Shown: positions 13,822 to 18,047 of the stretch, piece by piece
Layout of the letters: each line of letters begins with the position of its first letter
Numbering within the stretch: position 1 is the stretch's first letter
Sequence record: MW722083.1
Reading direction: 5' to 3' (one strand)
Length of the DNA: 39,565 bases
Source: Escherichia phage vB_EcoP_ZX5
Notes under the pieces: generated by a model
What the model saw: only the letters and a program-made list of their open reading frames with translations
Database searches by the model: none
Told to the model about the DNA's origin: nothing
Position numbers and translations under genes: made by a program

Positions 13822-13884
13822 TTACCCAACAGGTAAATGCACCTCATAGGTAACTATCCTTGATTTTTGTTACCTTATGGGTGA
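13822..13884. promoter_or_regulatory. OR-like operator cluster of three sites between repressor and cro-like genes
   Basis: TTACCCAACAGGTAA 13822-13836; GCACCTCATAGGTAA 13839-13853; TTACCTTATGGGTGA 13870-13884. Confidence 0.5.
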
Positions 13885-13920
13885 ATATTTATTATCTGAA
13901 ATAAATATCAGGCAATAGCT

Positions 13921-14151: not shown

Positions 14152-14173
14152 TATCCAGCTACAACCCTCTGTA

Positions 14174-14196
14174 GACCGCCATCCGGCGGTCTTTTC
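14174..14196 (+). terminator. intrinsic terminator after the cro-like gene (tR1-like)
   Basis: 7-bp stem GACCGCC/GGCGGTC, loop ATCC, then TTTT. Confidence 0.6.
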
Positions 14197-14299: not shown

Positions 14300-14512
14300 T
14301 TGAAGATAGTAACCAGAATGGAGGCCGCAAAAGCCGGGTTAAATCGCTATTTCACAGGAAAGCGGTGCCGTCACGGCCATCTCTCTGAAAGGTATGTTCT
14401 GAACGGAACATGTGTTGAATGTGCAATGAATAGCGCCAACCGCCATCGTAATGAATTTGCTTGTGCACTAAAGAGTGCAAGAGGGGAAACCTATGGCAAG
14501 CAGCTGGATTAA
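14300..14512 (+). CDS. small Cys/His-rich (zinc-ribbon-like) protein
   Basis: CRHGH...CVEC motif; start uncertain (TTG 14300 with AAGGGG SD, or ATG 14318). Confidence 0.4.
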   Translation: MKIVTRMEAAKAGLNRYFTGKRCRHGHLSERYVLNGTCVECAMNSANRHRNEFACALKSARGETYGKQLD

Positions 14513-15323
14513 GGTTGAAGTTATCACTCCTGATAAACCTGAAATTTTTCAGATAGCAGAAATTCTGGGTATTGATCCAGATGCTGTTCTTGGAAAGCTG
14601 GTTCGTATATGGGCATGGGCTGACCAGCAAACAATAGACGGTAACGCTGGCAGCGTTACAAAAGGAGTACTTGATAGACTCGCTTTTATTACAGGATTTG
14701 CTGACGCCCTCATTAGCGTCGGATGGCTTGCTTATCATGACGGCAAACTAATTCTTCCAAACTTTGAGCGACATAATGGAGAATCATCGAAAAAACGTGC
14801 ACTTACGAATAGAAGAGTGGCAGAGCATCGAAAACGAGTAACGCAAAAAGTAACGCCAACAGCGTTACAAAAGGAGTTACCAGAGGAAGAGGAAGAGGAA
14901 GATATATATAAAACCCCACACATAGCGCACGTGCGCGAGGGTGCTCCGACTAGTGAAGCGAACAGTACGCCGTTGCAGGTGGCAGAACCTGAATTTCTGG
15001 ATGGCCTGAGTGAACCCATCGGGAAATTTCCGATGACAGATGGCTGGCTACCGTCGCCAGATTTTCGGCGGCGTGCTGCGCTGTGGGGAACGGCCCTGCC
15101 GGAACCGGAATTTACACCTGCTGAACTTGCTGCATTCCGGGATTACTGGATGGCTGAGGGCAAAGTGTTCACGCAGGTTCAGTGGGAACAAAAATTCGCC
15201 AGGCACGTAAATCATATCAGGGGAAAATCAAAAAATGCCGGGAAAAGCGATGAGCTTGACTGGAATAACACTGACTGGATAGAAGGGGTGTGGGATGAAA
15301 TCAACTCCAGAACTTCTCAATGA
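14493..15323 (+). CDS. replication initiator (lambda O-like by position)
   Basis: 276 aa from ATG 14493 with GAGGGG SD; acidic linker (EEEEEE) overlying a repeat block; directly upstream of the P-like gene. Confidence 0.55.
   Translation: MASSWIKVEVITPDKPEIFQIAEILGIDPDAVLGKLVRIWAWADQQTIDGNAGSVTKGVLDRLAFITGFADALISVGWLAYHDGKLILPNFERHNGESSKKRALTNRRVAEHRKRVTQKVTPTALQKELPEEEEEEDIYKTPHIAHVREGAPTSEANSTPLQVAEPEFLDGLSEPIGKFPMTDGWLPSPDFRRRAALWGTALPEPEFTPAELAAFRDYWMAEGKVFTQVQWEQKFARHVNHIRGKSKNAGKSDELDWNNTDWIEGVWDEINSRTSQ
14838..14936. other. candidate origin of replication inside the O-like gene
   Basis: GTAACGC x2 at 14838 and 14850 plus inverted GCGTTAC 14862; (GAGGAA)3 14883-14900; AT-rich GATATATATAAAA 14901-14913; palindrome GCGCACGTGCGC 14925-14936. 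Confidence 0.35.
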
Positions 15324-16071
15324 GTACGATCGCTTACGTGAGCATGGTGTTGCTGTGCATGAAGAGCGGCGTGACAGCAATGGCAAAAAGGAGCAGGTTG
15401 CTAGAATTTTCAATGAACTATTTGTCCAGTTACAGGCTGCATTTCCTGCAAGCGTTTCGACCATAAGGGAGCAGAACAAACTTAATGAATTCCGTAAGCA
15501 ATGGATGCTTGCGTTTCTGGAGAATGGGATCACTACAATGGAACAGGTTAACGCTGGTATGCGCCACGCCCGCGCCAGTGAATCTCCGTTCTGGCCGTCG
15601 CCAGGGCAATTCATCAAGTGGTGCAAAGACAGCAAGATGGTTCTTGGCGTCACCATTGACGATGTGATGGCGGAGTTTCACCGGTACAGCAAGGAAAAAA
15701 GTTTATATCCTGGTGGTCCCGAAAGATTCCCGTGGCGGCATCCGGTTATGTACTGGGTCGTATGTGATACCCGTCGTGCAATGTATCAGCGCCAGCTTAG
15801 CGAGAGTGAGGTTGAGAAACACGCGCGCAGGCTGCTCGATGATTGGGCGAAAAAGGTGGCTTCCGGACAGCAGATACCCGATCCGGTGATCAGCATACAG
15901 GCAAAGCCAGAGCCCATGAGTACACCTCCGGACACAGGGAGAGACGTTTACCATCCACCAGGGCGAAGTTTCGGGTGCATGCCTAACGCCGCCACCCTTG
16001 GGGGAATAACACCGGCGCAGTGGCTGATGGAGGAATACAGGCGGGGAAAGGCGGCAGGATTTATCAAGTAA
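15295..16071 (+). CDS. replication protein P-like helicase loader
   Basis: block FPASVSTIREQNKLNEFRKQWMLAFLENGITTMEQVNAGMR...PSPGQFIKWC closely parallels lambda P as recalled. Confidence 0.8.
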   Translation: MKSTPELLNEYDRLREHGVAVHEERRDSNGKKEQVARIFNELFVQLQAAFPASVSTIREQNKLNEFRKQWMLAFLENGITTMEQVNAGMRHARASESPFWPSPGQFIKWCKDSKMVLGVTIDDVMAEFHRYSKEKSLYPGGPERFPWRHPVMYWVVCDTRRAMYQRQLSESEVEKHARRLLDDWAKKVASGQQIPDPVISIQAKPEPMSTPPDTGRDVYHPPGRSFGCMPNAATLGGITPAQWLMEEYRRGKAAGFIK

Positions 16072-17158: not shown

Positions 17159-17388
17159 GCATCCGAACTGAACATGGATTTGGTCCTTCAACGGTCGAAG
17201 TCGAATGGCTTGATGATTGCCCTAGGTGCCAGCACGGCAAAGCCAGGGTAACAGGATGGTCGGTAACCAAAGATTCTTTGTGGGCGGGTGATGAGGCCGT
17301 TTGTTCCAAATGCGGTCACAAAGGTGAAATCGATGCTGATGGAGAGAATGCCTGGGTGGAATGGGACGAAATCGAGGAGGCACAATGA
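17155..17388 (+). CDS. small zinc-ribbon protein
   Basis: CPRCQHG...CSKCGH motif; ATGA overlap at both ends. Confidence 0.55.
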   Translation: MSIRTEHGFGPSTVEVEWLDDCPRCQHGKARVTGWSVTKDSLWAGDEAVCSKCGHKGEIDADGENAWVEWDEIEEAQ

Positions 17389-18047
17389 GCAACATCGACA
17401 TCGACATCGACATCGACATCGACACACTGGCACTGCGTGAGGCGGCACAGAACGCGAAAGATTTAGGTGGGATTAAGAATTACAAGCGAGGTGAGCAAGC
17501 TGTTGCCGAATTTGAGTCCTTGATAACGCCACACATTGTGCTGGCACTGCTGGATGAGAACGAAAGCATGTGCCGCGACCTCATTGCTCGCAATGGTGAG
17601 ATTGAAGGGCTTCGAAAACTGGTTGCTGAACTTGAGGAGACAAAATCACAACTCAACGAGCAGCGTGAGTATTACGAAGGCGTTATCTCTGATGGGAGCA
17701 AGCGTATTGCTGAACTGGAGAAAAGCGAAGAGCAACTCATTAACGAGCGTGACCATGCTGAGTCTGCTTTAGCTGATATGTATTTTGCAGCAACCGGGGA
17801 TAGGCCTGAGTGGAGTAACTGGTTCGGTTTTTCAGATGCAGTAGATGCCGTAGTTGACAGAATTGCTGATTTAGAAGCTAAACAGCCATCGCCAGTAGTA
17901 CCTGAAGGACTGATTAAAGCGGTGCGTTTTTATGAGCAGGTAAAACGTGAGAACCCGCCAGTCGAAACCGGAGCATGGAAAGACGCTGTTGACTGGGTGC
18001 TCAAAGAGGCTTGCCAGGCTGTAAACATTGGCATCAAAGGAGAGTGA
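17385..18047 (+). CDS. coiled-coil protein with N-terminal (Ile-Asp)5 repeat
   Basis: 220 aa from ATG 17385; MSNIDIDIDIDIDTL. Confidence 0.55.
   Translation: MSNIDIDIDIDIDTLALREAAQNAKDLGGIKNYKRGEQAVAEFESLITPHIVLALLDENESMCRDLIARNGEIEGLRKLVAELEETKSQLNEQREYYEGVISDGSKRIAELEKSEEQLINERDHAESALADMYFAATGDRPEWSNWFGFSDAVDAVVDRIADLEAKQPSPVVPEGLIKAVRFYEQVKRENPPVETGAWKDAVDWVLKEACQAVNIGIKGE
17394..17423. repeat. hexanucleotide tandem repeat (ATCGAC)x5 within coding sequence
   Basis: five perfect tandem units read directly. Confidence 0.9.

Follow-up and report, generated by a model that had tools for sequence, protein, structure and literature searches.

Where does the Escherichia phage vB_EcoP_ZX5 begin to replicate its DNA, and do the repeats that lie inside its initiator gene mark the place? 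We analyzed the 39,565-nucleotide sequence record MW722083.1 (this whole stretch is hereafter the window), from which the Escherichia phages HEMP4 and TL-2011b differ only slightly. An earlier note on this DNA had proposed an origin at 14838-14936, within a gene that it took to be O-like, and had compared the arrangement of repeats and AT-rich DNA with that of lambda ori. The results presented here indicate that positions 14641-14913 are quite probably the replication origin of the phage, built in the lambda style but within the gene of an initiator that is not of the O type. The genes and protein domains concerned are the following.

14493-15323, + strand: replication initiator gene, 276 amino acids, phrog_2509 match

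Initiator protein: winged-helix-like N-domain, aa 10-117; disordered linker, aa 119-158; DnaT-like ssDNA-binding C-domain, about aa 165-250

15295-16071, + strand: lambda P-like helicase loader gene (PF06992, E 5.1e-56; phrog_109 'P-like helicase loader', E 1.6e-89)

The initiator combines a full-length match to the PHROG 2509 profile ('replication initiation protein', E 9e-130 over aa 1-268) with a DnaT C-domain (PF17948, E 1.6e-18), and its closest protein cluster has 400 members. The N-terminal 118 residues belong to no family in Pfam or NCBIfam. In the AlphaFold model, they include a helical domain, modeled with confidence and bearing a beta-hairpin wing (aa 10-90), followed by a basic helix (aa 97-117), and the disordered linker corresponds to 14847-14966, in agreement with the earlier placement of the repeats in the linker-coding part of the gene. 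The description of the initiator as O-like did not hold: comparison with lambda O gave no Phage_rep_O match in Pfam, no BLASTP alignment and an hhalign probability of 0.1%, so that no sequence relationship between the two proteins was detected. The description of the next gene as lambda P-like, conversely, is fully supported by the PF06992 match. Members of the initiator family are currently annotated merely as 'DnaT-like', 'primosomal protein I' or hypothetical.

The repeats form two groups within the initiator gene, and neither has a strand.

14641-14659: iteron site 1, a perfect 19-bp palindrome, GTAACGC-TGGCA-GCGTTAC

14838-14880: iteron cluster 2, four half-sites placed every 12 bp, in the order > > < <

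The two direct GTAACGC repeats 12 bp apart and the single inverted copy described earlier are at 14838-14844, 14850-14856 and 14862-14868 (GCGTTAC), and the 19-bp palindrome GTAACGC-N5-GCGTTAC at 14850-14868 forms the core of cluster 2. The interval proposed at first thus captured a real cluster but missed both its fourth half-site (GAGTTAC, 14874-14880), which has one mismatch and whose counterpart in a Klebsiella phage and in Samsonia reads GCGTTAC without any, and the second perfect palindrome, that of site 1, some 200 bp upstream. The two palindromes are 209 bp apart and share a 3' extension, which makes them a 28-nt direct repeat pair (14641-14668 and 14850-14877), longer than any other local direct repeat of the 39.5-kb window. 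The heptamer GTAACGC itself occurs 13 times in the window, with 4.2 occurrences expected, and 5 of the 13 are inside the initiator gene. Tandem and local direct repeat searches found no other iteron-like array in the window.

The perfect palindrome that the earlier note had also counted as part of the origin has a different standing.

14925-14936, no strand: palindrome GCGCACGTGCGC, probably outside the element

It is present in the window, as had been noted, and missing in TL-2011b (97.8% identical) as well as in 57 of 78 close relatives, and we rejected it as an origin part on these grounds. By simple arithmetic, chance alone would produce about 10 perfect 12-bp palindromes in a sequence of 39.5 kb, and GCGCACGTGCGC probably is one of them. 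Near the 5' end of the gene (14521-14552) there are two small palindromes, TTATCACTCCTGATAA and CTGAAATTTTTCAG, both retained in TL-2011b; in BUCT554, the second is kept imperfectly and the first is not kept. These, too, are probably due to chance.

Are the iterons signals in the DNA or a by-product of the protein that it encodes? Site 1 does encode a conserved peptide, GNAxSVT, and the extra half-sites found in relatives encode x-N-A-x, as a repeated peptide motif would lead one to expect. Nevertheless, a peptide motif, or mere chance, is an extremely improbable source of the repeats. The exact pattern GTAACGC-N5-GCGTTAC, which occurs twice in the window, did not turn up once when the window was shuffled 100 times. 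The reading frame over this DNA also differs, both between the two sites (site 1 gives GNAGSVT, in the loop aa 50-56, and site 2 gives VTPTALQ) and from one relative to another, site 2 of a Rac-like prophage being in another frame than that of the window and read as GNAASVT. Moreover, synonymous positions are frozen under the arms only. Among 26 non-redundant genes of the GTAACGC type, the commonest codon accounts on average for 59% of the codons at conserved amino acid columns, compared with 96% for GGT and 100% each for AAC and GTT under the site 1 arms, and the alanine codon with its third base in the site 1 spacer is represented by four different codons. The earlier note held that lack of conservation in relatives would speak against an origin; in a set of 80 close relatives from viral contigs, 78 retain both perfect palindromes, exactly 209 bp apart. 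Across these 78, the N5 spacer of site 2 occurs in 14 different versions between invariant arms, and the half-site arms are conserved in more than 100 relatives. Because the reading frames differ, the arm codons are frozen and the N5 spacer is free to vary, the repeats are signals constrained at the DNA level and not protein repeats.

The half-sites extend well beyond the close relatives. GTAACGC half-sites in the same two clusters were found in 19 prophage loci, 54-85% identical, from Samsonia, Rahnella, Pantoea, Serratia, Pectobacterium, Yersinia, Erwinia, E. coli and Shigella; each cluster has between 2 and 5 half-sites with the 12-bp period, and the extra ones appear as x-N-A-x insertions in the loop or the linker (for example, SNAKGNAISNAASVT in Serratia). 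An earlier protein search with the N-domain had returned mostly fragments, and the informative distant relatives came from tblastn against phage genomes, followed by de novo word counts. GTAACGC is kept by relatives that are 50-100% identical in the N-domain, in E. coli, Klebsiella, Serratia, Yersinia, Pseudomonas, Xanthomonas and Ralstonia, including those at only 50-55% identity (Pseudomonas VW-6S and PAN70, Xanthomonas CP2 and Ralstonia QkW1). Relatives with 32-39% identity have other half-sites in the same two-cluster layout. The divergent half-site types, with the N-domain identity to the window, are as follows.

Ralstonia phage Raharianne: 39%; half-site GTAGACG

Salmonella epsilon15, Pseudomonas phiPSA1, Ralstonia RPZH6 and Cobetia Carin1: 33-35%; GTCCGCA-N5-TGCGGAC

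Vibrio 1.211A: 47-48%; half-site GTCACA, in both clusters

MAG locus L022: 53-54%; half-site GTTGCGC, one palindrome only

The full sites of the divergent types are also 19 bp long, and most of the divergent relatives have two clusters, with a single clear palindrome in L022 and Carin1. The five half-site types follow the N-domain clades. They track the N-domain and not the host, because phages of one host genus that belong to different clades have different half-sites, whereas phages of distant hosts that belong to one clade have a common half-site. On the evidence of these comparisons, the iterons co-evolve with the N-domain of the initiator. The basic helix aa 97-117 is a candidate reading head for the half-sites because the most consistent residue differences between the clades fall there (LTN/ARRV versus QDADRK and others). 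The distance between the two clusters varies in relatives from 207 to 300 bp, without a constant helical phase, and we therefore rejected helical phasing as support for looping. In the epsilon15 clade, cluster 1 is located in codons of structured helices, aa 19-36 (L110, gene nt 55-107); in the window, it lies in a loop, which implies that the upstream cluster has moved within the gene in the course of evolution.

Palindromes could also act as RNA or single-strand hairpins, in mRNA stability, translation control or as an antisense terminator. Indeed, the RNA of 14830-14890 folds at -13.7 kcal/mol (z -5.1), and on the minus strand TTTTT comes directly after the palindrome 14850-14868, the pair having a terminator-like score. 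However, site 1 has no T run, and no Rfam match was found. The additional direct half-sites, with their fixed 12-bp period and often without an inverted partner (> > > < in Serratia and in ctnlZ23), would be superfluous in a hairpin. Furthermore, there are no compensatory changes in the arms within a clade, and between N-domain clades whole half-sites change. Hence, hairpins are a highly unlikely explanation of the repeats.

An origin also needs DNA that opens, and the window offers a candidate immediately 3' of cluster 2.

14882-14902, + strand: polypurine tract AGAGGAAGAGGAAGAGGAAGA, with (GAGGAA)3 at 14883-14900, coding for EEEEEE

14901-14913, no strand: AT run GATATATATAAAA, 13 bp; with the polypurine tract, the presumed unwinding region

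Both elements had been noted before and are found as described, (GAGGAA)3 being a repeat of period 6 with a 100% match (TRF). Together with cluster 2, they occupy the codons for the end of the basic helix and for the disordered linker, at the boundary between the N-domain and the C-domain of the initiator. Whether stability is computed over 20, 30 or 50 bp, its minimum in the initiator gene falls within 14864-14914, and the 20-30 bp windows there rank among the lowest 1.5-2.4% genome-wide, although they are not the genome minimum. With a purine asymmetry of 82%, positions 14869-14913 are the extreme 45 nt of the whole window. The AT-rich run of the earlier note exists within the least stable stretch but is short, and the GC content of 40-bp windows around it is still 0.40-0.48.

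The polypurine tract is conserved along with its location. (GAGGAA)n, with 2-5 units in close relatives, characterizes the enterobacterial Rac-like lineage that includes the window, and the (GAGGAA)3 tract has the same sequence in the Rac-like, BUCT554 and Samsonia genes, at an overall identity of 68-85%. Other relatives have AGAGAAGAGAAGAGAAGAGAAGA, (GAGAA)4-5, in the same place 3' of cluster 2. This repeat is identical or nearly so in phages of Salmonella, Xanthomonas, Ralstonia and Pseudomonas, in loci with 46-65% GC, and is read as REEKRREE in most of them and, in another frame, as PEKRREEK in ctnlZ23. Overall, most relatives have a perfect polypurine repeat 3' of cluster 2, and the three exceptions are purine-rich there. 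AGA codons are rare in GC-rich genomes. Because the 5-bp repeat is kept through frame changes and with rare AGA codons, it must be under selection as DNA. Many relatives (L002, L013, L106, L109, L115 and L117) also have paired C-runs, such as CCCCCCTAACCCCCC (peptide PPLNPP), where the C-module starts, a short distance past the tract; the window has only AAAACCCCAC at that place.

The tract also coincides with a seam between modules. DNA similarity to other phages breaks at 14902-14917, where the relatives of the N-module stop and those of the C-module start. The DnaT-like C-domain co-occurs with a P-like loader and the Rac-type C-domain with the DnaC-like YdaV, and in Raharianne a DnaB helicase gene lies downstream; C-domains and loaders (P, DnaC-like or DnaB) assort without regard to the type of iteron. 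The repeats do not depend on which C-domain or loader accompanies them, and next to them lies the DNA of the gene that is lowest in stability and most skewed toward purines. By analogy, this modularity is the logic of lambda O, with an N-domain that recognizes the origin and a C-domain that recruits the loader. The position of the break, the independent assortment of N-domains and of C-domains with their loaders, and the identity of the tract in very different phages are also what one would expect if the polypurine tract and the flanking repeats were a linker of shared homology, at which recombination swaps the N- and C-modules, and not a replication signal. This alternative, however, explains neither iterons that covary with the N-domain nor the frozen codons of site 1, and the identity of the tract at 46-65% GC, with its AGA codons, calls for direct selection. 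We consider it very improbable as an account of the locus.

The neighboring genes fit a lambdoid early right operon. Upstream of the initiator are a CI-like repressor, a Cro/CII-like gene, a pR-like promoter and a tR1-like terminator. The latter is a strong terminator-like hairpin with a T run (14173-14192), in a tR1-like position between the Cro/CII-like gene and the replication genes, and the pR-like match lies upstream of it (13867-13895). A small conserved ORF (14300-14512, 70 aa, phrog_1081, Cys/His-rich, RCRHGH...CVEC) overlaps the start of the initiator gene, and a phrog_1081 gene also precedes the initiator in BUCT554 and in Klebsiella phage ST11-OXA245phi3.2. Downstream, the P-like gene starts 29 nt before the initiator stop codon (overlap 15295-15323), which suggests coupled translation of initiator and loader. 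Farther along, a perfect tandem repeat (ACATCG)5.5 at 17392-17424 encodes DIDIDIDIDID near the start of the ORF 17361-18047.

Taken together, these data are compatible with a simple model of initiation at this locus. Dimers of the N-domain would bind the 19-bp palindromes GTAACGC-N5-GCGTTAC through the winged-helix-like core and the basic helix aa 97-117, occupying one site at 14641-14659 and the four-half-site array at 14838-14880. The two occupied clusters, 209 bp apart, would then probably join into an O-some-like nucleoprotein complex that could strain the adjoining polypurine and AT stretch, 14882-14913, until it opens, whereupon the DnaT-like C-domain would bring in the P-like loader with host DnaB. 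Thus, we infer dimer binding, cooperation or looping of the clusters, melting at the tract and recruitment of P and DnaB via the DnaT-like domain.

Several facts count against the origin reading: the AT run is only 13 bp long, the local GC content is 0.40-0.48, and looping receives no support from phasing. In addition, the initiator might bind such sites to regulate its own gene and not to start replication, and many plasmid Rep proteins repress themselves through inverted repeats. If so, the palindromes would be sites at which the initiator regulates its own operon or blocks transcription through it, and the true origin would be elsewhere. The sites are indeed palindromic, cluster 1 lies well inside the coding region, and covariation with the N-domain would be expected of any cognate binding site. 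But neither a second iteron-like array nor a better candidate was found in the window, cluster 2 always abuts a conserved polypurine, low-stability tract for which an operator would have no use, and the layout at the domain boundary matches that of lambda ori; autoregulation and origin function are, besides, not mutually exclusive. On balance, a purely regulatory role of the palindromes appears unlikely, and the origin at 14641-14913 is the interpretation that we favor.

A literature search that reached few subscription journals yielded no report of binding or origin activity for this phage or any family member, and nowhere were these iterons or the polypurine tract described. A broader generalization, which we offer tentatively as a possibility short of even odds, is that the locus exemplifies an undescribed, broad class of phage origins in Gamma- and Betaproteobacteria, with two clusters of 7-bp half-sites read by a Pfam-less winged-helix-like domain. 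In such a class, a universal (GAGAA)n or (GAGGAA)n repeat, independent of the specificity of the initiator, would be the melting or helicase-loading site and, at the same time, the point of exchange between origin-recognition and loader-recruitment modules. The polypurine repeat may then work via an unusual DNA structure or because a conserved component of the replication machinery recognizes it. If the origin reading is correct, it provides a sequence-level rule by which to locate the origins of temperate phages and prophages that form a large family in E. coli, Salmonella, Klebsiella, Pseudomonas, Xanthomonas and Ralstonia. The near-identical tract across different iterons and hosts offers a handle on how such initiators open DNA, and the locus could be used to build minimal replicons for Stx-related and epsilon15-like phages and to interpret replication-dependent induction of prophages.

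How does this locus compare with known systems? The similarity to E. coli DnaT (primosomal protein I) is limited to the C-terminal domain of the initiator, which scores 92 against a cutoff of 201 for the NCBIfam DnaT equivalog; the role of DnaT is in restart and not in origin recognition. Replisome-organiser initiators (PF09681, DUF1376) likewise combine a small N-terminal helical DNA-binding domain with a variable C-domain, and one initiator of this type, G38P of SPP1, has its origin within its own gene. Sequence and fold comparisons hint at a possible relationship: PF09681 matched 1 of 17 family members, non-significantly (E 0.012), and the BFVD fold matches of the N-domain, 'replisome organizer' and DUF1376 themed, are weak (E 0.15-1.4); no N-domain match to PF09681 or PF07120 reached the family threshold.

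Rac-like prophages of E. coli 442/2 and Shigella share with the window the N-domain, the GTAACGC iterons and the (GAGGAA)3 tract, although the Rac-type C-domain pairs with the DnaC-like YdaV and not, as here, with P. The Rac prophage has been reported to have an active origin, oriJ (PMC3945230), and ydaUVW were still listed in 2023 as genes of undetermined function (PMC11014345). However, oriJ was defined in the YdaU of the K-12 Rac prophage, whose N-domain, unlike that of the initiator of the window, is of the DUF1376 type, and whose gene has no GTAACGC sites. The linker-coding part of K-12 ydaU (L117:2620-3477, gene nt 392-458) contains TGTTCAAACA twice in direct and once in inverted orientation, and these repeats are candidates for the iterons of classical oriJ. 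The identification of classical oriJ with GTAACGC iterons was rejected, and the link to oriJ is by analogy only, because K-12 YdaU differs in both its N-domain and its repeats.

The closest parallel in organization is lambda itself. An origin inside the initiator gene is a classical kind of element; the lambda iterons are 19-bp inverted repeats in the middle of O, and their number varies between relatives, adding residues to the protein (PMC7466680). The proposed origin of the window, like that of lambda, lies mid-gene, between the DNA-binding N-domain and the loader-recruiting C-domain; in both phages, the iterons are 19-bp inverted repeats, and the rightward early operon runs from a Cro/CII-like gene past a tR1-like terminator to P farther downstream. 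Lambda also has a purine-rich AT stretch, ACAAAAGAAAAAAGAAAAGA, on the coding strand right after iteron 4, comparable to the tract of the window. Of the features of a lambda-type origin, we thus found repeated 19-bp sites, a strand-asymmetric tract of low stability, covariation with the N-domain and a downstream P, but not homology of the initiator to O. The lambda-ori-like layout proposed at the outset therefore stands as to iterons, meltable tract and P neighbor, even though no sequence similarity of the initiator to O was detected. The differences concern both the type of initiator and the layout of iterons: the sites here are arrays of 7-bp half-sites with a 12-bp period in two clusters 209 bp apart, as opposed to the four contiguous iterons of lambda; the presumed melting region consists of a perfect polypurine repeat with only 13 bp of AT; and the C-domain is DnaT-like, in an initiator without detectable sequence similarity to O. 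If the origin reading is correct, this would be a case of convergence, in which such an initiator has reached the same solution as lambda, with the origin at a domain boundary inside the initiator gene.
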